This document shows, one piece after another, positions 1,671 through 50,314 of a DNA stretch of 52,785 nucleotides. The DNA is taken from IMG/VR virus record IMGVR_UViG_3300046006_001177, positions 1 through 52,785 of that record; one strand, written 5' to 3'. Position 1 is the first letter of the stretch. Each line of letters opens with the position of its first letter. Below the pieces are notes generated by a model that was not told the DNA's origin, did not search any database, and saw only the letters and a program-made list of their open reading frames with translations. The stretch comes from a virus. Taxonomy: Duplodnaviria; Caudoviricetes. Made by a program: the position numbers and the translations under genes.

Positions 1671-2096
1671 TCAGTTAATACGTATTAACGCACTGGACGA
1701 TGTGTTGGGAGGCAACGTCACCGTAAATGTGCCATTGGCAGCCTGCGTCTTGTCGCTACCAAAATCCAACGTGGCTATCGACGCGTTCGCTACAGTGGCG
1801 TTGTAGATCAACGCACCCCGCGCAACAAACTGCGCTGATGTCCATGAAACATTGTCAAAGCTTACATACACAATCCCGTTGCTGGTCGAAGATATCGACA
1901 CGTTGGCTAGCGTGTTTCCGCCCGCCGTGTATCCAGCACCGGTTACCTCATTCGTCGGCGAGTATTCAGTCGTACTCTCGCCCATCTCTACATAGCCGTC
2001 ATACAGCGCCATCTTCAGCGTGTTGGACGCAACATTCTGGCGGCCATTTAAGATGTCCACCTTGAACGACGTAGTCAGGCCTTGGTAAATCGTCAT
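1671..2096 (-). CDS. putative virion structural protein (141 aa)
   Basis: TSFK..IL.G...KMALY...GYTAGG..L...ARGALIYN...LDFG pattern; ATGA overlap with upstream gene. Confidence 0.65.
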   Translation of the reverse strand: MTIYQGLTTSFKVDILNGRQNVASNTLKMALYDGYVEMGESTTEYSPTNEVTGAGYTAGGNTLANVSISSTSNGIVYVSFDNVSWTSAQFVARGALIYNATVANASIATLDFGSDKTQAANGTFTVTLPPNTSSSALIRIN

Positions 2097-2776
2097 GTCA
2101 CTTTCACCCTAACCTGACCACTGCGGTACGCATCCTGACGCTCCATACCATCGCCCAGACGTTTCAGTTCGCCCATAGCCTCGTTGTACTTGGCCTCGAC
2201 GTTGGCAATCAAATCTTGCTCGCCCTTCATGAACAGGTAAGCCTCACGCAGAGAGCCGTACAACAGCGCCGGATCGTAGTTGTCACCCAGCCACGTGCGG
2301 CCGTCAGCAGCCGTCGTAATCGACTCTGGGTAATAGTAGTAGTGCAGCTCTAGCGTGTACGCCTGATCAGGTGTTGGGCCGAAGATAAACGTCAGCTCAT
2401 CTACCGCCACGTTGCTCGTCACCTGCGGTCCGAAGATTGAGTAGTACTTGGGCAAACCCTGATCTGCCGGCGTGGGATACGCAGCACGGATGTAGTTCAC
2501 ATCCTTGTTCAGCAGGTAGTGATACTCCTCAGTCGCTGTGCCGTAGTTCTCGATCACAGCCATGGAGTACACCGCTAGGAAATCGTTGGGAGCAGTCAAG
2601 TACTTGTTACCCGTCTGCATGATGCCAGTGGAGTTGCGGCGAATAGACGGCAACTGCACCGCATTGTAGATGCGGGTTTCTGTCTGGCGTATGAACGTGG
2701 GAATGTACGACTCAAAGTCTGAGTCGTAGTTCTCCGTGTACGCCTGAATCGCGCTGACTAACTCTGTGTATGTCAT
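2093..2776 (-). CDS. putative head-tail adaptor / tail tubular protein (227 aa)
   Basis: MTYTEL..AI..Y, FI...E.RI, G.P.YY, PTPD..Y.LEL.YY and ALLYGSL.EA motifs. Confidence 0.6.
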   Translation of the reverse strand: MTYTELVSAIQAYTENYDSDFESYIPTFIRQTETRIYNAVQLPSIRRNSTGIMQTGNKYLTAPNDFLAVYSMAVIENYGTATEEYHYLLNKDVNYIRAAYPTPADQGLPKYYSIFGPQVTSNVAVDELTFIFGPTPDQAYTLELHYYYYPESITTAADGRTWLGDNYDPALLYGSLREAYLFMKGEQDLIANVEAKYNEAMGELKRLGDGMERQDAYRSGQVRVKVT

Positions 2777-3048
2777 GCCATTGGGCCGCGAGCCATTACA
2801 CCCTTAGTAGCAGCACCAGTGCCACGGATCTTGATGCCAGTCGTCTTCGTATCTTCCCGACCAGGATCACCCGCAGACACGCGCTGCACCGCAGTTCTCG
2901 GACCAAGCTTGTCCACCGCGATATTGTTCGGATCTTCCATCTTCTTCAACTTGGCAGGCACAGACTTGCCAGTCATCGTGTGAGGCGGAGCGTAAACCGA
3001 AGCGGGTCCAACTTCCTTCCCACCCTTCTTCATTGAGTACTTAGCCAT
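2773..3048 (-). CDS. small basic protein (MKKGG; RGTGAATKG)
   Basis: ORF track 91 aa; GAGG RBS; coupled to neighbours. Confidence 0.7.
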   Translation of the reverse strand: MAKYSMKKGGKEVGPASVYAPPHTMTGKSVPAKLKKMEDPNNIAVDKLGPRTAVQRVSAGDPGREDTKTTGIKIRGTGAATKGVMARGPMA

Positions 3049-3055
3049 ATCAACC

Positions 3056-3205
3056 TCACTTGGTTTTCTGGTTATGAATACGTGCCTCGTTGCGCCCGTA
3101 TTTTTTCAGATCGGATGTAGTTACGCCACCCTTTTTCATGCCTTTGTGCATGCGCTTTTCGTGTGCCTTGACCGCTGCCTTGGCGACCTTTCTCATCTTG
3201 TCCAT
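3056..3205 (-). CDS. 49-aa basic protein (MKKGG motif)
   Basis: Hand translation MDKMRKVAKAAVKAHEKRMHKGMKKGGVTTSDLKKYGRNEARIHNQKTK; AGGAG RBS; below ORF-track length cutoff. Confidence 0.7.
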   Translation of the reverse strand: MDKMRKVAKAAVKAHEKRMHKGMKKGGVTTSDLKKYGRNEARIHNQKTK

Positions 3206-3214
3206 CTCTTACTC

Positions 3215-3637
3215 CTAGTTGATAGTCACGTTTGCCACAATCGTCACCGGCGCTAGATTGTTTGGCGTCAGTCCATCGTCATTCGCCCTAGCCCCACCTA
3301 TCGGTGCCCAACCCCACTGGATGATCCGGCTACCACCGGCAGGGAAACCATCCTGCAATATGTTCGTGCCAGAGGTGTTGTCCGTCTGTAATCCCGTCAA
3401 TCCCGACTGCCAGTAAGACTTGTCCGGCCTCGGATTTCTCACTGCCTGCGGGTCGTTCACCGGGTACATACCAAGACTCAACTGCGGCTGATCCGGCTCC
3501 CAACACGTCTTGCACACCTTGATGTTGACGTTCTTCGTCTTGATCGTCAGTGTCTTTAACTCTTTCAACATGAACCGGAAGCCGCAGCGGTCACATTCCG
3601 CAATCGACTTCTTGCCACTTGCATACTTACTCGGCAC
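3215..3637 (-). CDS. CxxC-CxxC zinc-ribbon virion-module protein (140 aa)
   Basis: ECDRCGF...VCKTCWEPDQPQL...DPQAVRNPRPD; GTG start. Confidence 0.7.
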   Translation of the reverse strand: MPSKYASGKKSIAECDRCGFRFMLKELKTLTIKTKNVNIKVCKTCWEPDQPQLSLGMYPVNDPQAVRNPRPDKSYWQSGLTGLQTDNTSGTNILQDGFPAGGSRIIQWGWAPIGGARANDDGLTPNNLAPVTIVANVTIN

Positions 3638-3640
3638 AGA

Positions 3641-4381
3641 TCACCTGTACGTAATCATTCGAGGCACCAAACGATCCGGGGCTTTTTCCCGATCTTCGCC
3701 TGCCGCCATTTCCCACGACTCGTCGTACTGCGCTTTCAAAAACTGTAGTCGCTCCAAACCACCCGGTAACTTCATCGCCAACCGATATGCCAGCCCGCAG
3801 ATCAGCGGCTCCTGGAAACGGAATGGGATGTCCTCAACATTCACACCGTTGCCCGCGTCAAACATCCTACGCAGCCGCCAGTACACAAAGTAGTAGTACG
3901 GTGTCTGCGCTGTACCCTGATCCGGCGATGGCCACACGTTAATCTGCGGATTCTGTGGTGTAGCACCAGGTACGTCAGTTGTCTGCCCGCTGCGGCGGTT
4001 TATCCAGACTTGGATCGGCCGGCCTTGCGTGAGCTTGTTCGGGATCGTTGCGTACGTAGAGACGGAGATACGGTTGATGTTGATGTCTGACTGGGTACCA
4101 ATCTGACCGGGATTAGTTCGAATAACATGTTCCAGTAAATCCACGGTATCAATAGGTAGATCATAGGTAATCTGCCCTTGTACAAGCGGGATCGTTGCCG
4201 ACTCAATAGTCCACAAATTGATACCGCGATTAGCCCACTCCGTCAGCAGCAAGTTCAGGCTGCGACGCGCCGTACGGAAGTCATACCCCGTGCGCATCTC
4301 CAAGCCACAACGCTCGAACGCCTCTTCGAATATCTCGTTGAGGTCTGGATTAAACGCTGTTGTGGATGTCGTGTACGCCAT
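3641..4381 (-). CDS. putative head-to-tail adaptor (P22 gp4 / tail tubular A-like, 246 aa)
   Basis: EEAFERCG...ARRSLNLLLTEWANRG.NLWT, GRP, VWP.PD and IPFRF...L..GLAY.LA motifs. Confidence 0.65.
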   Translation of the reverse strand: MAYTTSTTAFNPDLNEIFEEAFERCGLEMRTGYDFRTARRSLNLLLTEWANRGINLWTIESATIPLVQGQITYDLPIDTVDLLEHVIRTNPGQIGTQSDININRISVSTYATIPNKLTQGRPIQVWINRRSGQTTDVPGATPQNPQINVWPSPDQGTAQTPYYYFVYWRLRRMFDAGNGVNVEDIPFRFQEPLICGLAYRLAMKLPGGLERLQFLKAQYDESWEMAAGEDREKAPDRLVPRMITYR

Positions 4382-4614
4382 TACCTGAATCTCGCAGTCT
4401 TCTGTGCTATGCCCTTGGGCTGTTTAACAAACTGCTTGCCTTTTGCCTTACCTGCCCGCTTTGCCTTCGTCGTTGCTGCATACTCCGCAGGACTCAGAGC
4501 TTTGATCGCCTTCTCCGGCAAATACCGCTCACCAGTTTTTGATGACGGCTTGCCGCTCTTGGTGCGCCATTTCTGATCGCCCCAGTTTTTCAGCGACTGT
4601 TGCGGGGCTTTCAA
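4381..4614 (-). CDS. DUF5872-like basic protein, C-terminal-half gene
   Basis: TTG start overlapping upstream TGA, GGGGGA SD; QQSLKNW..QKWRTKSGK...RYLP.KA...KR.G..KGKQFVKQP. Confidence 0.65.
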   Translation of the reverse strand: MKAPQQSLKNWGDQKWRTKSGKPSSKTGERYLPEKAIKALSPAEYAATTKAKRAGKAKGKQFVKQPKGIAQKTARFR

Positions 4615-4886
4615 TCTCTGTATCCCCCGCCTGCCGCTTTGTACTTCTTGGCTACTAGCTGCGCCTTGCGGGCTGACCACTGCCCTGCACCGGTGCCATG
4701 CGTTGCTGCCGCTTTCACTTGCGCCACGATCCGCTTGCGTAGACTAGGCTTCGTGTAGTTGCCCGCAGCATTGACCTTGCCACCTTCTTTGTACTGCGTG
4801 AAGTCAGTGTTATCCCGACGAGACTTCTTCTTCCCGCCGGGCATCTTGGTAGGGGAGATATCTCCCATGCCGCGTGACTTCATCAT
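4611..4886 (-). CDS. basic protein with NYTKPSLR...GQWSARKAQL...GGGY (DUF5872-associated N-half)
   Basis: ORF track 91 aa; motif recognition. Confidence 0.7.
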   Translation of the reverse strand: MMKSRGMGDISPTKMPGGKKKSRRDNTDFTQYKEGGKVNAAGNYTKPSLRKRIVAQVKAAATHGTGAGQWSARKAQLVAKKYKAAGGGYRD

Positions 4887-4887
4887 G

Positions 4888-5619
4888 TCAGCAGTACCCG
4901 CCTTTTTTCATCTTGGTCATGCCGCCCTTTTTCATGCCAGTAGAGCCGCTCATCTTGACCTGCATCGCCTTGGTTTTACCCTTCGTAGCAACGCCGTCAG
5001 CAGCCTTGTGACCAGCAGCTAGACCACCAGAAGCCATCTTCTTCATAGCCATACCACCTTTAGCCATCTTGCCCTTACCGTCAGCTGCGAAAGCTGGCAC
5101 CTTCTGGCCGTCCTTCATGACCATCGGCATACCGCCATCAGCGTAGCCGCCCATCGCCATCTTCTTGACCTTGCCGCCGTGCTTCATGCCAGCCTCTGCC
5201 ATCTCGTGCTTGACCATCGACTTGGGAGCGCCCTTCTTCTTCATGAACGACACTTCCTTTTTGACCATTGCTTTTGACTCTTTCATCTCGCCTCCTTTGG
5301 CTTTCTTGGAAAGGCCAGCTTCGGAAAGACCGATTGCAATGGCCTGCTTGGGATTAGTAACCTTCTGACCGGACGAAGACTTCAGCTTCCCGGCTTTGAA
5401 CTCGCCCATCACCTTGCCAACTTTGGCTTGGCCGCCCTTGGCAAAACGCTGTGTCATTTGATCATTCGGACCAGACATGGCTTGTGGCTGCATGTTGAAC
5501 GTCTGATTCATGCCACCACTCTGACCGCCAGCCATGGGCTGATTGCCGTAGAACGGATATGTCGGCTGCTGCGTCTGACCGGTGACACCACCGTCAGCAA
5601 ACTTTCTGCGCTTTCTCAT
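4888..5619 (-). CDS. Lys/Met/Gly-rich protein with ~10 xxGG repeats (243 aa)
   Basis: FADGG, FAKGG, MKHGG, MAMGG, YADGG, MAKGG, MASGG, MKKGG x2; KV.KVMGEFK.GKL.SSSG.KV...KQAIAI.LSEA module. Confidence 0.75.
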   Translation of the reverse strand: MRKRRKFADGGVTGQTQQPTYPFYGNQPMAGGQSGGMNQTFNMQPQAMSGPNDQMTQRFAKGGQAKVGKVMGEFKAGKLKSSSGQKVTNPKQAIAIGLSEAGLSKKAKGGEMKESKAMVKKEVSFMKKKGAPKSMVKHEMAEAGMKHGGKVKKMAMGGYADGGMPMVMKDGQKVPAFAADGKGKMAKGGMAMKKMASGGLAAGHKAADGVATKGKTKAMQVKMSGSTGMKKGGMTKMKKGGYC

Positions 5620-5864
5620 ACCATTTTCCCTCTGGTTTTGCCCCGAATAGCGCAGCCATCAGCGCGTTTAGAAGCAGATCCAACCATGCCGCCGCGAGCT
5701 TTCTTCTCTGTTTTTGGCTTACCTTCGCCAGTCGCAGTGCGATAGCCTTCTTCGGTCATAGCGTCCATCTTCTTGTACAAAGCATCTAGCTCCGGCACAG
5801 ACTCGCCACGAGCCCGACGCGCCTCAAGCTCTGTGATGCGAGCTTGAATCTGGGGCATGTTCAT
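5616..5864 (-). CDS. small protein with C-terminal SASKRADGxAxRGKTRG motif
   Basis: ORF track 82 aa; C-terminus paralogous to 5864..6535. Confidence 0.7.
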   Translation of the reverse strand: MNMPQIQARITELEARRARGESVPELDALYKKMDAMTEEGYRTATGEGKPKTEKKARGGMVGSASKRADGCAIRGKTRGKMV

Positions 5865-6535
5865 CAGCAGATCCTTCCTTTTGTCTTGCCGCGCTGGGCG
5901 ATACCATCAGCACGGGATGATGCAGAAGATACTTTGCCGCCCGACTTCATGCCCATCTTTGACCGACCGTACGGAGTAGATGCTGCGGTACTTTTGAAAG
6001 CGCGATCAGCAGAGAAGGTGCCAGCCATGGCTTTAAGACGCTCGCTTTTGCCGTACGGTGAATCTTCTTTTTTCAAGCCTTCCAAGCGACGTTTGTTCAA
6101 AGCATCAGAATCAATATCGCCAAACATCCCAGAAAGTTCTTTTTTCTTGGTTTTAGGCTTTGGTTTTGGCTTCGGCTTTGGTTTGACCTCTTCCTTGACG
6201 GTCTCAGTGACACTGTCTTCTTTGGGACTTGTCCGAATATAGTCAGTGATCTTACGCTCAGAGGTTTCTTCGTCATTGCCGTAGCCGATGCTTGGCGTGC
6301 GACCGCTTGGCATGTACGAGCTGTCAGAGTCCATGTCAGACATGCTGCGCTCTGGCGACTTCATGCGACGACCGCTGTAGTCGCTGCTCTCAGTCATGTC
6401 GGCAGTAGACTGCTCATCGTAAGAACGCTCTGGGTATCTGGTTCTTACCGCTTCGCCGGAACCAGATCGCACTGGATTGCCGAAACGGTCACGCAAAACA
6501 CCGCCTTCTTGATAGCGCTTGGCCTTCTTTTTCAT
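5864..6535 (-). CDS. low-complexity charged protein with C-terminal SASSRADGIAQRGKTKG motif (223 aa)
   Basis: YQEGG, (KP)n run, MKSGG; overlaps both neighbours. Confidence 0.7.
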   Translation of the reverse strand: MKKKAKRYQEGGVLRDRFGNPVRSGSGEAVRTRYPERSYDEQSTADMTESSDYSGRRMKSPERSMSDMDSDSSYMPSGRTPSIGYGNDEETSERKITDYIRTSPKEDSVTETVKEEVKPKPKPKPKPKTKKKELSGMFGDIDSDALNKRRLEGLKKEDSPYGKSERLKAMAGTFSADRAFKSTAASTPYGRSKMGMKSGGKVSSASSRADGIAQRGKTKGRIC

Positions 6536-6795
6536 AACACTCTCCGTTGAGATTCAATCAACTGATCTATCTTGGTTTCCAGCCGATTGAACCGCTGATC
6601 TATATGATCCGTGATGCGATCCACTTCCGCCTTGGTCACGTTGTCACGAGCAATTTCCTCACGGGTCTTGTTCAACAAGATCGTGATCCGCGCTAGCTCG
6701 GAGAACTTCTCATGCGCGATATACGCAAATAAGCCAACAAACAGCGATAGAGCGCCGTTCCAGACAAATGCTAAGTCCACGGTCAACACTTCCAC
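6532..6795 (-). CDS. small protein with one TM helix and a coiled coil (holin/spanin-like topology, unassigned)
   Basis: Hydrophobic N-terminus, then LLNKTREEIARD...RFNRLETKID; start codon uncertain. Confidence 0.6.
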   Translation of the reverse strand: MEVLTVDLAFVWNGALSLFVGLFAYIAHEKFSELARITILLNKTREEIARDNVTKAEVDRITDHIDQRFNRLETKIDQLIESQRRVL

Positions 6796-7037
6796 TTCCG
6801 TAAAGATTTGTTGATACGGCTGTTCGGGTCGTTAGCAGTCTTGGCGGAAGTCAGCTTCTTCTTCATACCGGACATCCGGGCACAGAATGACTTCTTCCTT
6901 GAGCCGCCTTCTGGCTGCGGCGCTTTCAACCCTGGCTTACCCGGATTGGCTTTGTTGTAGGAGGCGCGACCCTTGGCGTTCAAGCCGCCTTCAGGGTTCT
7001 TGCCTTCCTTACGCTGCCAAGCCGGACTCTTAGCCAT
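6783..7037 (-). CDS. DUF6321-like basic phage protein
   Basis: AWQRKEGKNPEGGLNAKGRASY...RKKSFCARM...DPNSRINKSLRKWKC. Confidence 0.7.
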   Translation of the reverse strand: MAKSPAWQRKEGKNPEGGLNAKGRASYNKANPGKPGLKAPQPEGGSRKKSFCARMSGMKKKLTSAKTANDPNSRINKSLRKWKC

Positions 7038-7929: not shown

Positions 7930-8838
7930 TCAAGCACCTTGGGATGCGAACATACCAAGTGGATCCGACCAGCCGAACGAATAACGCTCACGAGCCTTAT
8001 AACGTACGTTACCTGTGTCGAAATCGCCGTCCATCGAGTTCTGCAACGGAATACGAACAAAGTGCTTCATGCCGTTAGGAACATCAGTGGTCAGGAACCA
8101 TGCGTTCGTATCGGTCAAGAAGTGGTTGATCGTATAGCCTTCCGGGATCGAACCGTTGTTAACGATCGCGTTCACGTCGTTGTCATTGGTTCCCGGACGG
8201 AGTTGAGTCTCCAGCAGACGGGTGGCCACAAACTGGAGTGCCGGTGGCACGATCAGCTTGCGGGGACGTGCGGCGATCAGCAGACCACGTTCGTCAGTCC
8301 AAGCTGCGATCTGGATGACTGCGTTTTCCAACGCGGTTTCCGAAAGGTCAACTTGGGTCGACGGTGTGTTGCTGTTGGTGCCGCCGGATACCAGCGGGTG
8401 GGCTGTGCTGAACAGAGCAACGCCGTCGCCACCAGGATAGGTGGACGAGAAGCCGTTGTTCAGAACTGCCGCCGCCTTCACCTGCTTGGTGTAGGACATC
8501 GCACGAGCCAGCGCCTTGGTATAACGAGCCGAAAGGCTGTCATACAGGTTATCTTCGATGGCCTCTTCGGTCAGCGAGAAACCCAGAGCGATGGTTTCGT
8601 GGTTGTATCGTGCGGTCCAAGCTTCCTGGCCGTTGTCGTACCGGATCGCAGAACCTTCGTTCTTGACCGGTGCAGCACTAAAGCCAGAGAGCTTGGTCTC
8701 TTCTTCGAAGGAACGCTCAGAGGTCTCGGTTTCGTAGATCTCTTTGTGTTCTTCACCATAACGAGCGTACTCCATGCCGAACAGGGCGTTCAGGCCAGGC
8801 AGTAGCTCTTTCAGTAGTTGTGCGCGTGAAATAGCCAT
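7930..8838 (-). CDS. major capsid protein (HK97 fold, Mu gpT-like family, 302 aa)
   Basis: MAISRAQLLKELLPGLNALFG, GGDGVALFSTAHP, PRKLIVPPAL and YKARERYSFGWSDP motifs; AAGGAG RBS; followed by terminator. Confidence 0.9.
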   Translation of the reverse strand: MAISRAQLLKELLPGLNALFGMEYARYGEEHKEIYETETSERSFEEETKLSGFSAAPVKNEGSAIRYDNGQEAWTARYNHETIALGFSLTEEAIEDNLYDSLSARYTKALARAMSYTKQVKAAAVLNNGFSSTYPGGDGVALFSTAHPLVSGGTNSNTPSTQVDLSETALENAVIQIAAWTDERGLLIAARPRKLIVPPALQFVATRLLETQLRPGTNDNDVNAIVNNGSIPEGYTINHFLTDTNAWFLTTDVPNGMKHFVRIPLQNSMDGDFDTGNVRYKARERYSFGWSDPLGMFASQGA

Positions 8839-9522: not shown

Positions 9523-9969
9523 TTAACCGCCGCCCTTCGTGGTCGAGGAACTCGACTCTTTGAATAACGGCATACGTGGGTCATTTTGACGCATTAGGTT
9601 GTTGTCCACCGCTCTGATTTGCTGTTCCGATTGAGCTAGGTAATGTTGATTACGCTGCTCGGCCAGCTCTTCAGGCGTCTTGCACAACAACACGTCGCCG
9701 ACTTGGACACAGTCTTTCCACCGGCCCTCGCCATTGACTAGCAGTGCATATTGCGGCTGCTCCTCGACCTTCACCGGCTCCCAACCTTCTCTTATCTTGG
9801 AAGAGATGTTGCGGGCGTCGGACTGTCCTCCGAGCAAAACGCGAATCCAACGGTACTTGTAACCCGGTTGCTTATCTGGTTCTGGCAGAAGCTCCGGCGG
9901 CCTCCACTGCTGGGGACGCTGCGTTTGGTTACGACTCTCTGTACTACGGGGCATACGATTCTCAGCCAT
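9523..9969 (-). CDS. conserved head-module protein (148 aa)
   Basis: Start moved to ATG 9969 (GGAGG RBS). WRPP..LP.P...GYKYRWIR...REGWEPV...GDVLLCK.P motifs. Confidence 0.75.
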   Translation of the reverse strand: MAENRMPRSTESRNQTQRPQQWRPPELLPEPDKQPGYKYRWIRVLLGGQSDARNISSKIREGWEPVKVEEQPQYALLVNGEGRWKDCVQVGDVLLCKTPEELAEQRNQHYLAQSEQQIRAVDNNLMRQNDPRMPLFKESSSSTTKGGG

Positions 9970-10912
9970 TTCTCGCCTCCAATTTTTGCATTTCCTGCAC
10001 GTATTTTTCCAACGGTACGCCAAGTTTCTTTGCCATGGCGACTGCGGACTGCTTGACTGTGATCTTTTTGGACCCAGTGCTGCGCGTTGCAGGCGCTACT
10101 ACCGGAGCAGGCTTCTCTCGCTGGGGTTTTGCCTCCTGCTTAGAGCCTTGAGGTTCAGCTTCCTCCTCGTCTGCAAAATGCTCTGGGAACCGACGACGCA
10201 TAGTTTCGTCGACCTTGTGCCAGTATTCATCAGTGGACGGATATGCCGTGCCGTACTGACTGACCAACTTCTGATGCAAGCCCAGAGCCAAGCTGGTCAT
10301 TTCTTCGTCCTTACCGAACCATTGATTGCGCTCTTGCCACGCTATCGTCTTTTGGTCAGGACGAGGTACTGTATTGGCAACAGCTTGTACAGGAACTTCT
10401 TCCTCTTGTCTAGACGGAACAAATTCTGACACCCGCTGTAATTTGTACTGCGCTCTGTTCAGCTTCTCCTGCGCCTGAAGGATCTGTTCAGAGTCACCCA
10501 AGTCATAGGCTTCCTTGAACTCCTTCTTGGCCGACTCAAACTCTAGCTCTGCCGCCGATTTAGCCGTAGCTACATACGCCTGCTCACCAGAACTCAGCCT
10601 GCTTTTCAGCGAGTTGTTCTCTTCCATCAACCGCTTGGCATAAGCAAGAGCCTCCTGCTGCTCCCGTAACGCTTGATCTTTCTCACGGCGCTCGTCGTTC
10701 CAGACCTTCTTTAGCTGTTTGAGCTTGGTCTTTACTTCCTCCGAGTATTCCTCCAGCTCGTCAGACTCCAGCTTCTCAACGATCTCCTTGGGCATCGGCT
10801 GGCGGCCCCTGTCCTCCGGCGGGGTATCGTCTTCGATCTCAATCTCAAACTTATCCTCGGCTTCGGCTTTGTTCTCCACCTCGTCCGGGAACTTGAAATC
10901 TTCCTTGTCCAT
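9962..10912 (-). CDS. putative scaffolding protein (316 aa)
   Basis: Acidic coiled coil, W..RN.WFG and AKKLGVPLEKY C-terminus; between portal and MCP. Confidence 0.7.
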   Translation of the reverse strand: MDKEDFKFPDEVENKAEAEDKFEIEIEDDTPPEDRGRQPMPKEIVEKLESDELEEYSEEVKTKLKQLKKVWNDERREKDQALREQQEALAYAKRLMEENNSLKSRLSSGEQAYVATAKSAAELEFESAKKEFKEAYDLGDSEQILQAQEKLNRAQYKLQRVSEFVPSRQEEEVPVQAVANTVPRPDQKTIAWQERNQWFGKDEEMTSLALGLHQKLVSQYGTAYPSTDEYWHKVDETMRRRFPEHFADEEEAEPQGSKQEAKPQREKPAPVVAPATRSTGSKKITVKQSAVAMAKKLGVPLEKYVQEMQKLEARNG

Positions 10913-10926: not shown

Positions 10927-11328
10927 TTAAGCCCGGCTGATGCCGCGCGGATCCTGCACAACGGCTTCCACAACGTCGTCATTGATGAGTCGGAACTCTT
11001 GACCGTGGATCTTCAGCCTTGTGCCAGTGTTCGGACGGGCGAGAATAAAATCTCCTTCCTTGCACCATGGACCATTTGGGAATCTCTTTTCGTCTTTGTA
11101 ACAATCAGGTCCCATTTTCATCACAAAAAAGACAGTAGCTAGCACCTTCTCTTCGTACAGGGTTTGGTCTGCTTTGACGAGGCCGCTGTCAAACTTGTCT
11201 TCTACCTCCGGCAAAGCCACCAGAATGTGGTAGCCCGTAGGCTCTGGCAGTTGCTTTGCTTTCTCCTCGGCTGTTTCTGGCAGCGTCGAAGTTTCGCCAT
11301 CTTGACTGGCGATTAGTAATTCACTCAT
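10927..11328 (-). CDS. groES: GroES/Cpn10-like co-chaperonin
   Basis: LPEPTGYHILV...SGLV...V.KMGPDCY...PWCKEGD...GT...I.G.EFRLINDD.V.AVV; start moved to ATG 11328. Confidence 0.8.
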   Translation of the reverse strand: MSELLIASQDGETSTLPETAEEKAKQLPEPTGYHILVALPEVEDKFDSGLVKADQTLYEEKVLATVFFVMKMGPDCYKDEKRFPNGPWCKEGDFILARPNTGTRLKIHGQEFRLINDDVVEAVVQDPRGISRA

Positions 11329-11512
11329 CGGAAAACTCCATTTTCTTGGCAAGGTCTAGGATGTAACCCTCTGCAATTGAGAGACCTCGGATCTCACCAC
11401 AGAGTTTCTGGTACTCAGCGTAGTCATGCGCCGCGCTGTTGGACACGGCTTCAACCACCTGTTCGCGCTTGTCACGTACTTGTTTGAGAAGTATTTCAAA
11501 CGCCTTTTCCAT
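11321..11512 (-). CDS. small conserved protein downstream of portal (63 aa)
   Basis: DYAEYQKLCGEIRGL motif; AAGGA RBS. Confidence 0.7.
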   Translation of the reverse strand: MEKAFEILLKQVRDKREQVVEAVSNSAAHDYAEYQKLCGEIRGLSIAEGYILDLAKKMEFSDE

Positions 11513-11515: not shown

Positions 11516-13984
11516 TTAGTCCTTCTTTTTGGCCGGTTGCTTCGGTTGTGGACGGTTCATCTCGGCCTGATCTTTGGCGATCTGCATGCCAACACGGATA
11601 CCTTCCAGTTCCATTTTGGCTTCCATGTCTGCCTTGTCTTTGGCCGACTTGGCACCAACCTGCATGCCAGCGATCTCTTTCTGCGCGGCGATGCGCTCTT
11701 CCTCGATGCGGATTCTGTCCGCCTTCTCGGTAGCTTCCACCACCAACTTCTGCTTCTTGAGTTCCAGCTCTTGCCCTTTGAGCATGAGTTCCTGCTGCTG
11801 CATCTGGACTATTGGATCCATCGCCGCCTGCTGCGCCTGTTTCTGCGCCATCTCGGCCTGATCCTTCTGCAACAACTTGCCAGCAGCGGCCGCCATCATC
11901 CGAGACACTTCGACTTCCAACTCCGGTGGCAACTCCTTGTCCATCTCCGGTAGTGGAACGCCCAGCATCTCTTCGATCTGCTTCCTGTACTCGAACGCCA
12001 CATGCTCATTGATATGAGCCATTAACGCCGCCTGCATCATCTGCGCGCGCGGGTTTTGGCCAATCAACATCGCAATCTTCGGATCCTGCATGGCCGACAT
12101 GTGAACCTGAATGTGCGCTTGATGATCCTGGTAGATGAACGCCTTGACCGGCTTGCCATTCAACACCGCCATGTTTTCGGACACAGGGTCTTTTGGCTTC
12201 TGATCTTCCGCCGACGGAACGAGCTTGCCGACGTTCTTAATACCTAGAACCTCTAACATCTGACGGTTCAACTCCACCATGTCATAGATCTGTGGGTTGA
12301 CCTGCGCCATCTGCATCACCGCCTGATACTGCACTACCTTCTGAGCCATCGTGGCCGAGTTGGGATCAGAAACAGGGATGACATCGACATCGTCGTAGTC
12401 CGACTTCTTCGCACGAGGCGATCCTTCTGTCGGTTCGTACGAATACTCATCCGGCGTGTAGTCCCGGATGATGTCCTTCAGCAGTTTCAACTCCTGTTTC
12501 ATCGCGTAGTGGATACGCGCCTGCACCGCCGACATGACCTTTAACGTGCGCTCCAGAATCGCCAACGTCGTTCCAACCGGTGAGTTGGCCGACATGTCAG
12601 CGATCTTGAGGTCAGCCGCCGCAGCAAATCGGCGCCCTTCCTCAACAATCTGGTTCATCAATCCAAGAAGAACTTGGCTCGGCTCTTTGTACGGAAGTGG
12701 GAGGATGTTGTCTCTGATCGTGCCGGCCGCGACGTCCACATCTCGGAACTCGCCGGGTGCAATTGGAGTGTCATCTCCTTTGACTCGCATGCCCTTAGTT
12801 TTAAGACCGCCAGGCAGATTCGATAGAGTCCCAGCGTCAACCAGCTGACGAATAATAGAAGTACCAGACTTAGCGAAAGCACCGATAAGATGAATAAGGC
12901 CGAAGGCATAGAATCCAAAGCCGGGGATATATGGGTAGTGAACAAAGTGGTTCCTCTTCTGATAGGTCTCATCTTCCGGCCGCCAGTTCCGTCTGATTGC
13001 TAATACCTCCTGTGACGTCTTCTCTATCGTCACGATGTAAGGCAACCCAATCTCAGTCGGCTTGCCCTTATCATCCTTATCTTCGTACCCCGGCAGATCC
13101 AGATACACCTGCATCTCAAGGATCTTGTAGCGGTCATCCGTCGTCGCCCGAAAGCCCATCTTCTCGGCGATACTCTTCTCAATATCGTCTAGAACATTCT
13201 CCGGCTCCGGCAGATCAATGTCCCGGTAGAAGCCAGCAACCATCAGGCGGCGTAACTCATTCTTCGTCTTTCTCATCACGTGAGTTACACGCGGTGCCGA
13301 CTCCAAATTACTCGCCCCGTACGGAACCACCACGTCTTCAGCCGGTACAAAGATAGATACCTGTCTGCCGAGAGAAGGATCGTAGTACACCTTCTTGAAC
13401 GCATTCCCTGCCAGCCCCAAGCCCCACAACATGCGCTCATGTTCAGGCCGGTATTCGGTCATCACCTCTGTTAACTGGTAGTTCATGTCATCCCGAACCC
13501 GCTCGGCCGCATCTTTCTTGCCGGGTGTTTCTTTGCCGACGATCTTTGTCTTCACCGGACCGGATGCCGGGAAGGTTTCCATAATTGTCTCTGCTTGGAA
13601 CTTCACCAGCGCTTCTGATAACAGTGGGTGATACACACCACACGCGCCTTCCCATGGTTCTGAGCGCTCCTCGATCTTCATGCCCAGCAACTCTAGGCCG
13701 TCGACGTAGGTTTTCATCCAGTCCTTGCGGGAATCCAGATCATCTTGGAAGTCACTCAACAGATCTGATGCCAACGACTCCAGTTCGTCCGTTTCCATCT
13801 TCTCGGCCAGGTTTTCAGCGAACTCATCGTCCTCTTCTTCCATGTCCATCACCAGTTTCAGGTCGCCTAGCCCAACAGTTACCGACTCTGGATCCTCGAT
13901 CTCAATCTCAATCGACTCATCCTCCATCCCGTCGTCCAGCCCGGCCGGTAATTGGTACAGCGCCTTGTCTATATTTGTCGCCAT
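11516..13984 (-). CDS. portal protein (P22-like, long Gln-rich C-terminal barrel; 822 aa)
   Basis: Follows terL. SRKDW, HPLLSEA, GNAFKKVYYD, GFYAFGL and RQLVDAGTLSN motifs; Q-rich coiled tail. Confidence 0.88.
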   Translation of the reverse strand: MATNIDKALYQLPAGLDDGMEDESIEIEIEDPESVTVGLGDLKLVMDMEEEDDEFAENLAEKMETDELESLASDLLSDFQDDLDSRKDWMKTYVDGLELLGMKIEERSEPWEGACGVYHPLLSEALVKFQAETIMETFPASGPVKTKIVGKETPGKKDAAERVRDDMNYQLTEVMTEYRPEHERMLWGLGLAGNAFKKVYYDPSLGRQVSIFVPAEDVVVPYGASNLESAPRVTHVMRKTKNELRRLMVAGFYRDIDLPEPENVLDDIEKSIAEKMGFRATTDDRYKILEMQVYLDLPGYEDKDDKGKPTEIGLPYIVTIEKTSQEVLAIRRNWRPEDETYQKRNHFVHYPYIPGFGFYAFGLIHLIGAFAKSGTSIIRQLVDAGTLSNLPGGLKTKGMRVKGDDTPIAPGEFRDVDVAAGTIRDNILPLPYKEPSQVLLGLMNQIVEEGRRFAAAADLKIADMSANSPVGTTLAILERTLKVMSAVQARIHYAMKQELKLLKDIIRDYTPDEYSYEPTEGSPRAKKSDYDDVDVIPVSDPNSATMAQKVVQYQAVMQMAQVNPQIYDMVELNRQMLEVLGIKNVGKLVPSAEDQKPKDPVSENMAVLNGKPVKAFIYQDHQAHIQVHMSAMQDPKIAMLIGQNPRAQMMQAALMAHINEHVAFEYRKQIEEMLGVPLPEMDKELPPELEVEVSRMMAAAAGKLLQKDQAEMAQKQAQQAAMDPIVQMQQQELMLKGQELELKKQKLVVEATEKADRIRIEEERIAAQKEIAGMQVGAKSAKDKADMEAKMELEGIRVGMQIAKDQAEMNRPQPKQPAKKKD

Positions 13985-13993: not shown

Positions 13994-15466
13994 TTAGTAG
14001 TAAACCCGCTTGCGGCGGTGAAGCGGCTCGTCTTCCTCATCAGAACCTAGCCGCAGGAACCCGCCCTGTCGAAATCTCATCAACGCCTGTACGCCAGAGT
14101 CGACCAAATCGTCATGTTCTGCGTTCGGAAACCGCGCAAACTCTTCGATTACGTCCTCTGCCCACCGTTTGTCAGGCGCCCACACTTTACCGGAAGAAAA
14201 TAGGTCTGTAACGCTGTTCAGACGCACGAACTTGTCGTTGCCGCGTGTCGGTGTGAAGTCCTGAACCATCACGCCCATCTTTCTCAGCTCAAATATCAGC
14301 GGCGCACCCGCTGCTTTGGCTTCAATAATGCAGGCATCCGGCTCCCAGTCGTCGTACATCTCCTTTGCCTTCGCTTTTAGGTCAGGAAACTCCACCTTTC
14401 CCTTCCACGCGTCCAGCAAAATGATGTTCACATCACTTTCATCCTCGTCTTTGTGAAAGACACCCCATGTCGTACACGCGGAATAGTCACTCCGCTGGTT
14501 TTTCGTGTACGCCGTGTCCCAAGATTGGATGATAAATTCACACGCAGGCGCTCTTTCTCCCTCCCAGAGCTGCCACCAGTCCCTTTTTACCAGCGCACCC
14601 TCTTCTCCCGTGGGCTTTTGCTGGTACTGAGCGTTCCATTTATAGGGTGGAAGCTCCTCTTTCAGTGCCAGAAGTTCATTTACAGGCCAAAATTCAGGCC
14701 AGAGGCTGTTCCCCGACGGCAAAATGGCTGGAAACTCCACCACTTCCCACTCGGTTGCGTCAGATTTCAGCACTCGGCCGGTCAAATCCTTGTCCGACCA
14801 GCGCGTCATCACCACCACAATCGCCCCACCCGGCTGCAAACGCTGCCGAGGACCAGATGTGTACCATTCATACACACTGTCAAAGACCGTCGGATCTCCT
14901 TGCGCCAGCCTCGCTTCCTGTTCCGAATGCGGGTCATCTATTATTAGTAGATCCGCACCCTTACCAGTGACCGTACCTCCAACCCCGATAGCGAAATAGT
15001 CTCCGCCGTGAGAGGTTGCCCACCGGCCAGCCGCTTTAGAGTCGGCTCGGAGTCCCACATTCGGGAAGATCTTGCCGTAGTGTTCGCTATCTACCAGGTT
15101 CCTGACCTTCCGGCCAAACCCCACCGCCAGTTCGGCCGTGTTCGACGTCTGTATCACCTTCTTCTCCGGGTTCCTACCCAGATACCACGCCGGCAATAAG
15201 AAGGAGGCGAACTCCGACTTCGTATGTCGCGGCGGCATGTTGATGATCAGCCGCTTTAACTTCCCTTCCGCGATCTCTTCGAACTTCTTTGCCATGATGG
15301 CGTGATGTCTTCCGTGAATAAATCCCGGCCACATCTCTTTTACAAACGACATGAACTTGCCCTGCGCCCGTTCTCTGACGACCGCATCTCGGTACTGACC
15401 CACCTGCTCTAACAGCTTCTCCTGCTCCGCCGCCGGCAGCTTACCTATCAGTTCACTCAAGTCCAC
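13994..15466 (-). CDS. terL: terminase large subunit (490 aa)
   Basis: INMPPRHTKS Walker A variant, LLIIDDP Walker B, MTRW, YQQ.P, SWDTA...DYSA and HDDLVD nuclease motifs. Confidence 0.95.
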   Translation of the reverse strand: MDLSELIGKLPAAEQEKLLEQVGQYRDAVVRERAQGKFMSFVKEMWPGFIHGRHHAIMAKKFEEIAEGKLKRLIINMPPRHTKSEFASFLLPAWYLGRNPEKKVIQTSNTAELAVGFGRKVRNLVDSEHYGKIFPNVGLRADSKAAGRWATSHGGDYFAIGVGGTVTGKGADLLIIDDPHSEQEARLAQGDPTVFDSVYEWYTSGPRQRLQPGGAIVVVMTRWSDKDLTGRVLKSDATEWEVVEFPAILPSGNSLWPEFWPVNELLALKEELPPYKWNAQYQQKPTGEEGALVKRDWWQLWEGERAPACEFIIQSWDTAYTKNQRSDYSACTTWGVFHKDEDESDVNIILLDAWKGKVEFPDLKAKAKEMYDDWEPDACIIEAKAAGAPLIFELRKMGVMVQDFTPTRGNDKFVRLNSVTDLFSSGKVWAPDKRWAEDVIEEFARFPNAEHDDLVDSGVQALMRFRQGGFLRLGSDEEDEPLHRRKRVYY

Positions 15467-16037: not shown

Positions 16038-16733
16038 CTATCTCGTTTCCGCAGGTGACGGGGGGTCTTCGCTGGGATCGGAGTCGCTGGGTTCGGGAAT
16101 ATTTGGGGATGGTTCGAGTTCATTACTATGTACATGCGCGTCGGAGTCCCATTCTGCATTTGGGGGTGTACCCGCCCCGTGGGGTTCCGGCTCTGACAAT
16201 TCCGCCAGCAGGGAATTCGCGTCGACGTCGACCGCATCGGCCGTGCCGAGCATCATTGTCTTGAGTTGATCGAGTATCTGCGCGCGCAGTTCACCGGAAT
16301 CCTTGACGTGTTCGACCCGCTTGGTTTCCCTGAATGCATCAACGCCGACAAGCTGCCCGATACTGCGCACCGCTTGCACACGCGTTGCGGCCTTTTCCTC
16401 GGGATTTGTTGCTATTTCGGCCAGTGTTGAAATGACAATAGAGCGCAAGCCTGTAGCAGAATGCAACGCAGCCAGTTCATTTGCCCTCTCTATCCGTTCT
16501 ATTTCCAAAGCAATACCCGAGTGCTGTTTCAATACTGTCGCAGCGTTTCCTGCTGTTTTTGGTTTTGCTGTTGGGCTATACGCTTGCCGGTAAGCCTGCG
16601 CACCGGTAGCACCGAGCGCAACCTGTTCGGCAAACTTCTTTTGCTTTGCGGTCAATGTTCCTTTTGGCACTCGCATTGCCTGTTCAATCCCACCGCTTGC
16701 GCTTATATGCGCCCTTACTGATTTTCTGTTCAT
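16038..16733 (-). CDS. terS: terminase small subunit
   Basis: LTAKQKKFA...G....QAYRQAY HTH, L.EIA, A.R.IG.L.G motifs; upstream of terL. Start ATG 16733 or GTG 16760. Confidence 0.75.
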   Translation of the reverse strand: MNRKSVRAHISASGGIEQAMRVPKGTLTAKQKKFAEQVALGATGAQAYRQAYSPTAKPKTAGNAATVLKQHSGIALEIERIERANELAALHSATGLRSIVISTLAEIATNPEEKAATRVQAVRSIGQLVGVDAFRETKRVEHVKDSGELRAQILDQLKTMMLGTADAVDVDANSLLAELSEPEPHGAGTPPNAEWDSDAHVHSNELEPSPNIPEPSDSDPSEDPPSPAETR

Positions 16734-16799
16734 GCTATGCCGCTGTTCGCTTTCGCTCACTTACCGCCGCCGACCCGCAGCCGCGCCCTATTGCCGCGC

Positions 16800-41271: not shown

Positions 41272-41542
41272 GCAGTACATGAACGAAGTAGCCAACATAG
41301 GCTGCGTGCTGTGTCACCATCTTGGCTACGGGCATACGCCTGCTCATCTGCATCATCCCCGCGACGCTGTAGGCGGGGCGCAGCGGGCTTCTGACTGGCT
41401 AGTAATACCGCTCTGCCCTGAACATCATCAGGGATCGAGCGGCTATCACGGGCTAGGTAGCAAGGGCTTTTACACACGGTACAAGCTCACCGAGTGGGAT
41501 CTGATGGCCATGACTATCGAGAGGCTGCATACTGCTTCTTGA
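41258..41542 (+). CDS. Ref/DUF968-like HNH nuclease
   Basis: GC.LC......A.LHH.R...G..QRA....VIPLC.EHH....G.H; TTG start after GGAG. Confidence 0.75.
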   Translation: MKPVKQYMNEVANIGCVLCHHLGYGHTPAHLHHPRDAVGGAQRASDWLVIPLCPEHHQGSSGYHGLGSKGFYTRYKLTEWDLMAMTIERLHTAS

Positions 41543-47417: not shown

Positions 47418-48836
47418 TTATTTCCCTAGAATACGCGCTGCCGCTCCCTGTCCATACTTAGCGTCAAAGTCTGCTGCCAAGCCGGGATTCTTTTTCAGAT
47501 AATCAACAGCTCCCGCTGGGGGCGAAGTCATTGGAGCAGGCGCAGCACCTGATCGCATAGGATCAGATGACATCATTTGTCGCGCCATCTCTTGTTTTTG
47601 CTGCAATGTCTTGCCAGCGTTCATAGGATCATTTGCCACAATCTTCATGGCTTCTTCGTAGCTCATGATGTTCTGTGGTTTGCCAGCGCCACGGATACGA
47701 TCTATGTCGCCCATGAATTTGCCAGCAGCTTCTGGTCCTTGTTTAGCAAGGATGTCGTGGTACCTGCTTAGTAGGCGCTCTGTTTCGCCCGGACGACCAG
47801 CAGACATCGCGTGAATCTTAGCCACAGCAAGCTGGTATTGACCAGACTTGTCAGCCACTTCCAGCGCACGCTTTGCGTTCTCATCAACACCGTACTTGGT
47901 AATGTACAGTTCAGATGATTTTTCAAGCGCTTTGTTCTCTTGGTCAACACGACGCTGCTCAAGTGCCTGGAGTTGATCTTCGTAGCGATTGACTCTCTCT
48001 CTTGCCTTGCCAGACTGATCGCGTTTCAACCGATCTTCTGCCATCAACAGATCGCGCTCTGCCTTGGTGATGTCGCGTTCGGTATCACGGATTTCCTTCA
48101 TCGTGCCGCTGTACTGCATCAACGCCTGACGACCTGCTGTAGACAGTGCTTCGAACTCCTTGCCTTGACGTGCGCCTAGTAGGCCAAATCCAGCCATCAT
48201 CAGGGCTTCACCCTTGGCCTGATCTCTACGACCCTTCAGTTCCTCTCGACGCGCCTTTTCTTCTTCGCGCATCGAACGAATCAACTCACCCGTATCAATA
48301 CCGGCTAGGCGCTCTTCCTCTTGCATCCGTTTCAACTCACCAGCGTAGGTGCGCTCTTCCGGCATCTTGTAGTCGCGCAACGCGTAACCACCCGGCATTA
48401 CTACCGGCTGACGCGCTGGCGGCGCAGTAGGTGCAGCGGGTGTTTCTCGCGCTATAGCCTCTGGCAAAGAAGCCAGACCTCTGCGGAATGTATCCTCGGC
48501 AGATACCAACTCACCATCTGCATATCCCGGCACTTCTCCACCGTCGGCAAATGCAACGATCCCGCCGCCTGCCATCTCTTCTGGCAGTCCTGATGGCAGC
48601 GCAGCCACTCCGGGCTGTGCTTGTTGTTGCATCATCTGTTGTTGCTGACCTAGTACCTCATCTGCCACGGTCTGCTGCGGCGGTTGCATGTTCTGCTTCT
48701 GGATGCGGTCGATCATCATCCCAGCCATGACAGCCTTGGTGGGATCTATCAATCCCATTTGCGCCATCTTCTGCAACTGAGGCTTGCTGTACTTGGTAGC
48801 CAGCGCCTGTATATCTTGAATACCGGGAATAGCCAT
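47418..48836 (-). CDS. putative DNA ejection/internal virion protein (472 aa)
   Basis: MAGGGIVAFADGG; coiled coil; C-terminal YLKKNP....FD.KYG.GAA; AGGA-like upstream context. Confidence 0.7.
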   Translation of the reverse strand: MAIPGIQDIQALATKYSKPQLQKMAQMGLIDPTKAVMAGMMIDRIQKQNMQPPQQTVADEVLGQQQQMMQQQAQPGVAALPSGLPEEMAGGGIVAFADGGEVPGYADGELVSAEDTFRRGLASLPEAIARETPAAPTAPPARQPVVMPGGYALRDYKMPEERTYAGELKRMQEEERLAGIDTGELIRSMREEEKARREELKGRRDQAKGEALMMAGFGLLGARQGKEFEALSTAGRQALMQYSGTMKEIRDTERDITKAERDLLMAEDRLKRDQSGKARERVNRYEDQLQALEQRRVDQENKALEKSSELYITKYGVDENAKRALEVADKSGQYQLAVAKIHAMSAGRPGETERLLSRYHDILAKQGPEAAGKFMGDIDRIRGAGKPQNIMSYEEAMKIVANDPMNAGKTLQQKQEMARQMMSSDPMRSGAAPAPMTSPPAGAVDYLKKNPGLAADFDAKYGQGAAARILGK

Positions 48837-49875: not shown

Positions 49876-50314
49876 TTAAATGCTCCTTGCGATATTCGTC
49901 ATACCGCTCAAACACGATTTCTTTCCACACTTCAGGCATGTATTCAGCCGCCTTCTCTGGTCCCACACAGACATGCACCGCGTAAGCGATGATGTTGCCC
50001 GCCGCATATCGCAGGCCGTGCGCTATCTCTATGCCATGCTGATCCTTCGTCTGCTCGTAGTGGTTGGCCGTCTGATACGCACTCACAACGGTTATCCACA
50101 TGGGCAAAACAGCATGCTGAATCATCTGGTAGAACCGATTCATCGGCAGGTAAACCAAGCAGATCATGAACGCGTTGTTGATGTCACGCTCTGCTAAATC
50201 TTTGTCTTTATCTACCAGATCATCCCAAGCGTGTGACAGATCCACAAACATGTGGAACATGGCAAACGCATCCTCATTACCACCAAACCACTCAAGCTTT
50301 CCTACAGTCTTCAT
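49868..50314 (-). CDS. alpha-helical protein with DDxxD motif (isoprenoid-synthase-like), 148 aa
   Basis: HAWDDLVDKD, LP.N.FY; coupled between two ejection-module genes. Confidence 0.6.
   Translation of the reverse strand: MKTVGKLEWFGGNEDAFAMFHMFVDLSHAWDDLVDKDKDLAERDINNAFMICLVYLPMNRFYQMIQHAVLPMWITVVSAYQTANHYEQTKDQHGIEIAHGLRYAAGNIIAYAVHVCVGPEKAAEYMPEVWKEIVFERYDEYRKEHLNV

Follow-up and report, generated by a model that had tools for sequence, protein, structure and literature searches.

A hydrophobic-Gly-Gly motif in small basic proteins and ejection proteins of a freshwater podophage lineage, and the C-terminal tag of the small proteins

The window analyzed here is the whole of a 52,785-base virus record from IMG/VR (IMGVR_UViG_3300046006_001177; Duplodnaviria, Caudoviricetes), with a completeness estimate of 84%. 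The phage belongs to a freshwater podophage lineage related to HTVC023P, CRP-901, and Pag-Yong1, and its major capsid protein (MCP) is 55–72% identical to those of the Roseobacter phages CRP-901/902, the pelagiphages HTVC023P/027P, and the Planktothrix/Synechococcus phages Pag-Yong1/MinM2. Its structural module lies on the minus strand and includes a cluster of small, very basic open reading frames (ORFs) between the capsid and adaptor genes. The ejection genes are found at the opposite end of the window, and encode a DUF4214 protein of at least 824 amino acids (aa; hereafter the 824-aa protein), a 148-aa protein, a 345-aa homolog of phrog_4287 ("DNA ejection protein"), a 472-aa protein, and a 1966-aa polyvalent protein with ddrB-ParB and LPD38 domains (Pfam). 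An earlier note on this DNA had singled out the motif [MFYL]-x-x-G-G, shared by the small basic proteins and the ejection proteins, as a candidate processing or packaging signal, and this motif and its setting are the subject of the present analysis. The gene list combines a codon-usage call with ORFs added by hand, and is not a curated annotation.

All motif copies named in the earlier note were found, on the minus strand. Its count of more than 20 copies in nine ORFs stands for the copies (26 strict matches; Table 1) but not for the ORFs, of which there are eight, the ninth carrying only a KARGG variant. When each protein was compared with shuffles of its own sequence, the 243-aa protein of the basic cluster (nine motifs against 1.29 expected, with 0/1000 shuffles reaching nine) and the 824-aa protein (seven against 2.13 expected, p 0.006) were enriched, and the remaining named ORFs were marginal one by one (p 0.03–0.2). 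The comparison of virion with non-virion genes that the note had proposed gave 36 motifs in 34 virion-module ORFs against 12.0 ± 3.4 expected (0/1000 shuffles), and 27 against 11.0 ± 3.3 once the 243-aa protein was left out (0/1000 shuffles); the 42 non-virion ORFs contain three, where 6.2 ± 2.4 are expected. The 1966-aa polyvalent protein shows no enrichment (two motifs against 2.06 expected). In relatives, the motif occurs 216 times in the 187 unique basic ORFs of 32 related loci, where 33.3 ± 5.7 copies are expected, and 394 times in 70 unique homologs of the 824-aa protein (153.9 ± 12.7 expected), counts that come from homologous genes of one lineage and measure conservation rather than independent recurrence.

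The motif could be refined to [YFM]-[AKP]-[KE]-G-G-x-V. Over 336 GG sites, Y (6.8-fold), F (6.5-fold), and M (4.8-fold) are enriched at position −3 before GG, with A, P, or K at −2, E or K at −1, and a 5-fold excess of V at the second residue past GG; L, which the note had admitted as a first residue, is not enriched (1.1-fold). The motif had also been said to follow Lys or Arg often, a weak tendency given that K at −4/−5 is just 1.6–1.9-fold enriched. With Φ for the hydrophobic residue, Φ-x-x-GG is 6.5-fold enriched in the basic ORFs, Φ-x-x-x-GG 2.2-fold, and Φ-x-GG is depleted to 0.68-fold (22 observed, 32.5 ± 5.9 expected). Chance or composition as the source of the motif is ruled out by the shuffles together with this register test, and a pure DNA repeat is ruled out by synonymous codons that differ between copies.

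In the small proteins, much of the motif signal comes from the front end of a longer C-terminal tag, as follows from the profile of the tag and from its architecture. The tag was found by lining up basic ORFs on a G-x4-GKT string, upstream of which nothing is conserved beyond the tag itself, and its consensus, Φ-K-x-G-G-x-V-S-S-A-S-x-R-A-D-G-[IC]-A-x-[KR]-G-K-T-[KR]-G-[KR]-M-[VC]-end, covers ~28–30 residues with a charge of about +7 and a tail of alternating Gly and basic residues. A profile of 45 tails of 36 residues (alignment A2), run against 1.84 billion cluster representatives, matched 8638 of them at E ≤ 1e-3 (clusters at 50% identity) and 1754 at E ≤ 1e-10. Among the best 150 matches, which are 33–258 aa long, 138 have the tag ending at most two residues from the C-terminus, and 138 have Φ-x-x-GG at a distance of 5–20 residues before the G-x4-GKT string; 72 of the proteins end in V and 55 in C. 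At least two tag matches occur in 21 of the 150, and both tag-only and double-tag ORFs exist. No Pfam family covers the tag, and 149 of the 150 examined representatives are without a Pfam domain, the one match at E ≤ 1e-4 being a partial Amidase_2 (cell-wall) domain. The string G-x4-G-K-T is Walker-A-like and lies 5–6 residues before the C-terminus in most proteins; G-[ICV]-x-x-[KR]-G-K-T is present in 71 of 76 tails, and the remaining five have H or R instead of K. A P-loop nucleoside triphosphatase was considered and rejected, since a string so close to the end of such short proteins, with no Pfam domain, lacks the strand-loop-helix α/β setting.

The claim that the motif marks module boundaries holds. 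In 138 of the 150 best representatives it is where the C-terminal tag begins; it also opens the conserved C-terminal domain of the 824-aa protein, occurs close to where the conserved N-terminal stretch of the 472-aa protein (residues 1–~111) stops, and forms the junction past the DUF6321 Cys in fused proteins as well as the edges of indels in alignment A1. Where genes resembling that of the 243-aa protein are split, 9 of 16 projected ORF starts or ends fall 0–3 residues past a GG of the window protein. The 243-aa protein is a string of mini-modules, which relatives encode singly or gain and lose as blocks. On these sequence comparisons, the motif is best described not as a free-standing code but as the edge of portable mini-modules. 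The earlier note is supported in part: the motif is a selected and conserved feature of head-module and ejection proteins, but the note had caught only part of the signal, missing the longer tag and the C-terminal Cys; a capsid-targeting code, as it had suggested, or an anchoring code fits an architecture in which one C-terminal tag is joined to thousands of unrelated N-terminal parts.

A pattern scan for the tag across 185,579 prokaryote species (one genome each) returned 22 loci, all from metagenome bins, and the tag was not seen in any isolate bacterial genome of that scan. Eight of these loci carry the MCP (83–90% identity), seven more an adaptor, six only other genes of the cluster, and one nothing else. 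Because nearly all of them carry MCP, adaptor, or cluster genes, the tag is, by this gene context, a property of the phage group. The tag loci (L176–L197) are binned to more than ten unrelated phyla (e.g., Microbacteriaceae, Bacteroidota, Methylopumilus, Nanopelagicales, Cyanobium, and Saccharimonadales), probably as a result of mis-binning. Pag-Yong1 is the only tag carrier among five cultured relatives, and there the tag (on UMO75986) ends a 308-aa Pro/Ala/Arg-rich protein encoded between the capsid and adaptor genes. A tblastn search of the 36-aa tag against 50,697 phage records gave no matches, the query being too short.

The MCP is 76–99% identical across the whole phage group, and is 76–86% identical where the 345-aa ejection protein is just 38–50% identical; the scaffold (35–56%), portal (57–71%), and adaptors (43–68%) drift normally. 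This contrast may be read as a hint that the MCP is the constrained partner of a constrained tag, and the MCP is taken as the best docking candidate. A predicted complex of two MCP copies (alignment A4) and the tag (A2) gave no answer (score 0.00 in both runs) and speaks neither way, and no sequence relative of the MCP is present in the PDB.

The cluster genes lie on the same strand between MCP and adaptor, with overlapping stops and starts (Table 1). There are at least 599 related capsid loci in metagenomes, and the group is very abundant. Eighty related capsid loci were kept, and MCP and adaptor could both be placed in 32; in these, whose MCPs are 87–99% identical, the interval between the two genes ranges from 2.8 to 7.1 kb and holds 3–9 basic ORFs (defined as K+R of at least 15%), so that the cluster is hypervariable. 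The motif is present in 99 of the 187 unique basic ORFs, G-x4-G-[KRH]-T-[KR] occurs in the last 25 residues of 68, and 64 have Cys as their last residue (2 of the 126 other ORFs do). The net charge of the cluster proteins is +7 to +34. In the window, Cys is the final residue of three unrelated basic proteins (ORFs at 4888, 5864, and 6783, ending ..GGYC, ..GRIC, and ..KWKC).

Table 1. Coordinates of structural, basic-cluster, and ejection features in the window, with strict [MFYL]xxGG copies per ORF
Feature	Position (nt)	Strand	Details
Small terminase	16038..16760	-	
Large terminase	13994..15466	-	
Portal	11516..13984	-	
GroES-like gene	10927..11352	-	
Acidic scaffold-like protein	9962..10912	-	
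MCP (Mu gpT-like / Phage_capsid_4)	7930..8838	-	followed by two small Gly-rich proteins
Cluster of small basic ORFs	about 4381..7037	-	
84-aa DUF6321 protein	6783..7037	-	net +18; ends ..KWKC; 71.9 bits vs cut-off 28.5
87-aa protein, transmembrane segment and coiled coil	6532..6795	-	not basic; motif-free; kept in relatives including DSL-LC04
223-aa basic protein	5864..6535	-	two strict copies; N-terminal M(K)n-RYQEGG; (KP)6 run
Tag of 223-aa protein	5867-5974	-	..MKSGGKVSSASSRADGIAQRGKTKGRIC; Cys-terminal
82-aa protein	5616..5864	-	no strict copy (KARGG variant only); last 36 residues (nt 5619-5726) are the tag, ..KKARGGMVGSASKRADGCAIRGKTRGKMV
243-aa modular Lys/Gly/Met-rich protein	4888..5619	-	nine strict copies; net +34; ends ..KKGGYC
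DUF6496 domain of 243-aa protein	5317-5448	-	residues 58-101; 35.9 bits vs cut-off 24 (Pfam)
91-aa basic protein (phrog_17747)	4611..4886	-	one strict copy (YKEGG); ..FTQYKEGGKV..; C-terminal ..KAAGGGYRD
99-aa basic protein (phrog_14910)	4381..4680	-	cluster member; net +19; motif-free; start uncertain, overlaps 4611..4886
SU10-adaptor-like genes (two)	3641..4381, 2093..2776	-	further small basic ORFs between them
49-aa basic protein	3056..3205	-	one strict copy (MKKGG); ..KAHEKRMHKGMKKGG..; between the two adaptor-like genes
91-aa basic protein	2773..3048	-	one strict copy (MKKGG); begins MAKYSMKKGGKEV
C-terminal ~105-aa domain of 824-aa DUF4214 protein	50311..50628	-	ORF 50311..52785 (seven strict copies), 5' end outside window
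FKNGG of 345-aa protein	48877..48891	-	C-terminal GGL.xLxL.NM end; ORF 48838..49875 (three strict copies)
Tandem MAGGGIVAFADGG of 472-aa protein	48537..48575	-	conserved N-terminal region; ORF 47418..48836 (two strict copies)
Zincin-like metallopeptidase-type domain	44415..45017	-	residues ~800-1000 of 1966-aa protein (ORF 41514..47414)
HEMLH of zincin-like domain	44745-44759	-	
Invariant Glu951 of zincin-like domain	44562-44564	-	

The family of the 243-aa protein has more than 5180 matches, is always Cys-terminal, and shows block indels flanked by KKMAxGG; imperfect 23-nt direct repeats encode GMKxGGKV, and the window protein also holds an internal G-x4-GKT string. Further mini-modules shuffled in the cluster are an N-terminal M-(K/R)n-[FY]-x-[DE]-GG, DUF6496, a KHEKRMH unit, DUF6321 ending ..[KR]W[KN]C, and a DUF3008-like start, MPS.SKKQ.., which gave no DUF3008 match in Pfam here. 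Relatives swap the N-terminal module of the 49-aa protein for ADGITKxGKTKG, and in fused forms the DUF6321 Cys is followed by [AK]-[DE]-GG and the tag. DUF6321 with a terminal Cys is found in 548 phage records, far more widely than the tag, and in structural gene clusters of three phage morphotypes: the gene stands directly after MCP in the T7-like P-SCSP1h and between gp15 and gp16 in the T4-like P-SSM2, where the proteins keep the terminal Cys without Φ-x-x-GG. Searches of the small proteins against Pfam, PHROGs, and NCBIfam returned only DUF6496, DUF6321, phrog_14910, and phrog_17747, all function-unknown, along with weak TonB matches, and the ESM Atlas returned unnamed viral clusters only. 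The TonB matches are caused by the (Lys-Pro)6 run of the 223-aa protein (6130–6170, minus strand). Although the 243-aa and 84-aa proteins are members of DUF6496 and DUF6321, neither family covers the motif or the tag. The available passages of the P-SCSP1u and PhiM1 papers contain no mention of small proteins or of a peptidase.

In the ejection proteins, the motif is found in conserved segments. The ~105-residue C-terminal domain of the 824-aa protein is kept in 76 homologs, which are unalignable upstream of it, and it always opens with [MFY]-A-x-GG-[IL]..LG.-YSDGG, in the window as the tandem MAAGG..LGGYSDGG (nt 50569–50616). An AlphaFold2 model of this domain has a predicted local distance difference test (pLDDT) score of 62, and two motif copies in the protein are highly conserved yet fall below 50. 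In the 472-aa protein, [MY]AGGG[IL]V occurs in 12 of 12 homologs and is followed by F-x-[DE]-GG in 11 of 12, while the conserved GGL.xLxL.NM end of the 345-aa protein is present in most of its 41 aligned homologs. As far as the models can indicate, these conserved segments of low pLDDT look like docking motifs that would fold on a partner. A tape-measure identity for the C-terminal domain of the 824-aa protein was rejected, the matches being weak only (PDB 8rk3, E 0.68; phrog_7025, 0.0013). A resemblance of GG-I/L-V to the mobile loop of GroES was entertained and dropped.

A complete relative, G002 (65,258 bases, with terminal repeats), is collinear with the window and contains 11.8 kb absent from it, encoding tail fibers, a nozzle-like protein, an M15 endolysin, a 2-oxoglutarate (2OG) oxygenase, and an HNH gene. 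The 2OG-Fe(II) oxygenase gene of G002 (locus L170, 13834–14580) lies among tail and lysis genes. Between the two SU10-adaptor-like paralogs of the window lies the gene for a CxxC..CxxC zinc-ribbon-like 140-aa protein (3215–3637, minus strand). The window also contains a large sugar-nucleotide/glycosyltransferase cluster on the plus strand (30915–40954), which comprises two GT2 genes, a GT10 fucosyltransferase-like gene, GDP-mannose 4,6-dehydratase, epimerases, a DegT aminotransferase, and a split transketolase, with an HNH endonuclease (35993–36457) inside it.

The statement that no standard prohead protease is visible was borne out at the level of families: Pfam and PHROGs scans of 68 window ORFs and the 13 ORFs in the 11.8 kb of G002 found no CE-clan, C39, or prohead protease family, the M15 endolysin of G002 being the sole peptidase family detected in scans that work at profile level, without a fold search of every ORF. 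The statement had, however, passed over a zincin-like HExxH domain in the 1966-aa protein. A regular-expression search for H[ED]xxH in 31 virion-module and ejection proteins returned one site, HEMLH at residues 886–890 of this protein. The segment could be aligned in 10 of the 80 related loci (E ≤ 1e-5), all ten keeping HExxH-x-AT; H886, E887, H890, and E951 do not vary among 11 aligned sequences with 24–63% identity, the Glu standing ~60 residues on, and HExxH is found in the visible part of 34 of 51 large downstream ORFs of related loci. AlphaFold2 modeled residues 760–1010 with pLDDT 85.5 and a predicted TM score (pTM) of 0.84, and with the elements H50-68, E73-78, E89-94, E100-106, H122-143 (containing HExxH), and H190-199 (containing the Glu). 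The closest solved structure by VIA-align is a chain of the PhiM1 pre-infection ejectosome (8vb2_A; Z 9.3, root-mean-square deviation (rmsd) 3.9, 151 aligned), followed by anthrax lethal factor (1yqy_A; Z 5.9, rmsd 5.7, 152 aligned) and small zincins (Z 3–4.5). Foldseek against the PDB gave none at E ≤ 0.001, its weak rows being mostly zincins, and BFVD gave 22 matches at E ≤ 1e-3 (best 4.3e-11, TMq 0.78) to internal core proteins, N4-type virion RNA polymerases, and polyvalent proteins. No Pfam peptidase family matched residues 531–1230 at E ≤ 1. The modeled domain is thus a candidate metallopeptidase carried in the head, and a candidate processing enzyme.

Several other routes to a protease were considered and set aside. 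The 316-aa head protein is acidic and scaffold-like; the 222-aa head protein has a 49-residue oligopeptidase F match, presumably upstream of that enzyme's active site, and a weak Phage_cement match, and these were taken as not meaningful. Double-glycine leader systems have an N-terminal leader ending in GG, a hydrophobic residue at −4, and a C39 peptidase-ABC exporter nearby. Here the register is −5, most sites are internal or C-terminal, and no C39 or ABC match was obtained, so that a double-glycine leader was also rejected.

The best reading of these data, which we hold tentatively, is that basic internal head proteins share the tag as a module for anchoring or encapsidation. On this view, short portable linear modules would be bordered by the motif, a hydrophobic-Gly-Gly hinge, and this lineage would attach them to its ejection proteins as well as to small proteins that are very basic and probably disordered. 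The tag, as the common anchor of thousands of unrelated N-terminal parts, would dock to a conserved component of the head (the MCP may be the best candidate) and thereby position these proteins inside the DNA-filled capsid, and the alternating basic residues of its G-x4-GKT-[KR]-G tail could lie on DNA phosphates. The proteins would then travel with the genome, neutralize its DNA, and be ejected along with it, and a Cys at the very end may provide additional disulfide bonds once outside the cell. The tandem motif of the large ejection proteins would open or close conserved, unstructured docking segments. In a broader and rather unlikely form, the tail would be a general loading and tethering tag of this abundant lineage: any protein bearing it would be docked within the HK97-fold head, ride on the packaged DNA in the manner of a DNA sled or protamine, Cys-locked, and enter the host with the genome. 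The more than 8600 unannotated cargo families would then amount to a fast-evolving injected arsenal, whose hinges the zincin-like domain may trim.

Several points weigh against an encapsidation module. Bound proteins cannot enter along with DNA that is packaged through a portal, which makes a separate docking step necessary; tag-only and double-tag ORFs mean that the tag may be the working part rather than an address; and the membrane protein within the cluster implies that not every cluster gene need be part of the virion. DUF6321 is found with quite different capsids, which suggests from its distribution that it is not tied to one shell, the counts in relatives stem from a single lineage, and a literature search found no paper naming DUF6496, DUF6321, Pag-Yong1, or the tag strings.

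Proteolysis offers another explanation, in which fused basic precursors would be cut at or beside Φ-x-x-GG by the zincin-like domain or a host enzyme. It would account for motifs at module edges, for modules that occur both fused and separate with 9 of 16 split-gene ends or starts just past GG, and for a conserved HExxH..E domain of confident zincin-type fold in a core protein, but we consider it unlikely. The zincin-like metallopeptidases of polyvalent proteins described by Iyer et al. (2017) have the same HExxH and later Glu and the same helix/three-strand/HExxH-helix core, although the domain of the 1966-aa protein matches no Pfam peptidase model; these authors predict that such domains process packaged polyvalent proteins, and report that P1 DdrB is cut before packaging whereas the N4 domain of the same kind is packaged uncut (PMC5512222). 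The earlier note had drawn its analogy from the adenovirus protease (AVP) and the African swine fever virus (ASFV) protease pS273R, and this analogy fails on spacing. The AVP consensus, (M/I/L)XGG, has its hydrophobic residue at P4 (PMC4246237), and here the hydrophobic residue is at P5, unlike the P4 of every GG-directed protease that the note had named. Because the register differs, an adenovirus- or ASFV-type mechanism as stated is not supported; an adenain-type site further needs a virus-encoded CE-clan cysteine protease, which the profile scans did not find in the window or in the 11.8 kb of G002. The polyvalent protein that contains the candidate enzyme is itself not enriched in the motif, and the tag continues for 20 more conserved residues past it, so that a cut after GG would free a fixed 23-residue peptide, which is possible but not needed.

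The small proteins could instead act outside the virion, as late basic effectors of the nucleoid, ribosome, envelope, or lysis, the tag then guiding them, inside the cell, to some host target or to the phage DNA. A membrane/coiled-coil protein in the cluster, one tagged representative with a partial Amidase_2 domain, the description of DUF6496 and DUF6321 only as function-unknown families, and a hypervariability that would suit an arms race with the host all agree with this. We nevertheless regard it as improbable, as translationally coupled genes embedded between the capsid/cement and adaptor genes of the late structural operon encode them, ejection-module proteins including the phrog_4287 homolog carry the same motif, the tag was seen in no isolate bacterial genome of the species scan, and DUF6321 lies in structural modules of T7-like and T4-like cyanophages. 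Finally, duplication and module shuffling might simply copy Gly-Gly hinges as flexible linkers or recombination joints that have no specific reader. The repeated KKMAxGG flanking indels in the 243-aa family, the 23-nt direct repeats encoding GMKxGGKV, and the phage's own ERF recombinase would suit such copying, which is the least probable of these explanations: synonymous codons differ between copies, which argues for conservation at the protein level, preferences extend over seven positions in an exact register, and the motif stands at the same place in homologs that are otherwise 25–50% identical or unalignable upstream.

If encapsidation or DNA tethering is the role of the tag, it would define a large unannotated class of phage internal proteins (8638 clusters, with 149 of 150 examined representatives Pfam-free), a plain sequence criterion by which injected effectors could be recognized in an abundant group of freshwater phages, and a 30-residue handle with which foreign cargo could be loaded into capsids. 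If the hinges are cut, they would represent a GG-linked maturation system with a register unlike any described. Either way, what had appeared as an oddity of composition becomes a defined and testable peptide module.

Encapsulin cargo-loading peptides and the C-terminal tail of the HK97 protease are short C-terminal tags that load unrelated cargo into an HK97-fold shell; they are hydrophobic or Gly-Ser-Leu in character, or bind the delta domain. The phage tag differs from them in being strongly basic and in its G-x4-GKT string, and its binding to the shell would be by analogy. Adenovirus pVII, pX/Mu, and pVI are likewise basic, DNA-bound core proteins with GG motifs (PMC4246237), and the pVIc sled, a small basic peptide from a C-terminus that slides along DNA and has a conserved Cys (PMC4740752), is similar in form to the tag. 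Unlike adenovirus, the present virus is a tailed phage that packages through a portal and has the hydrophobic residue at P5, and no adenain-like enzyme was found in the profile scans. The internal proteins of T4 (IPI, IPII, IPIII, and Alt) are a diverse set of small, often basic proteins from a hyperplastic locus that share only one short capsid targeting sequence, are encapsidated together with the DNA, and are later injected (PMC3012670). Their signal lies at the N-terminus and binds the scaffolding core, whereas the tag described here is C-terminal (138/150) and no prohead protease family was found by the scans above. In T4, the signal is removed by the prohead protease at L-x-E. As in the T4 set, one tag is carried here by unrelated small proteins of a hypervariable locus.

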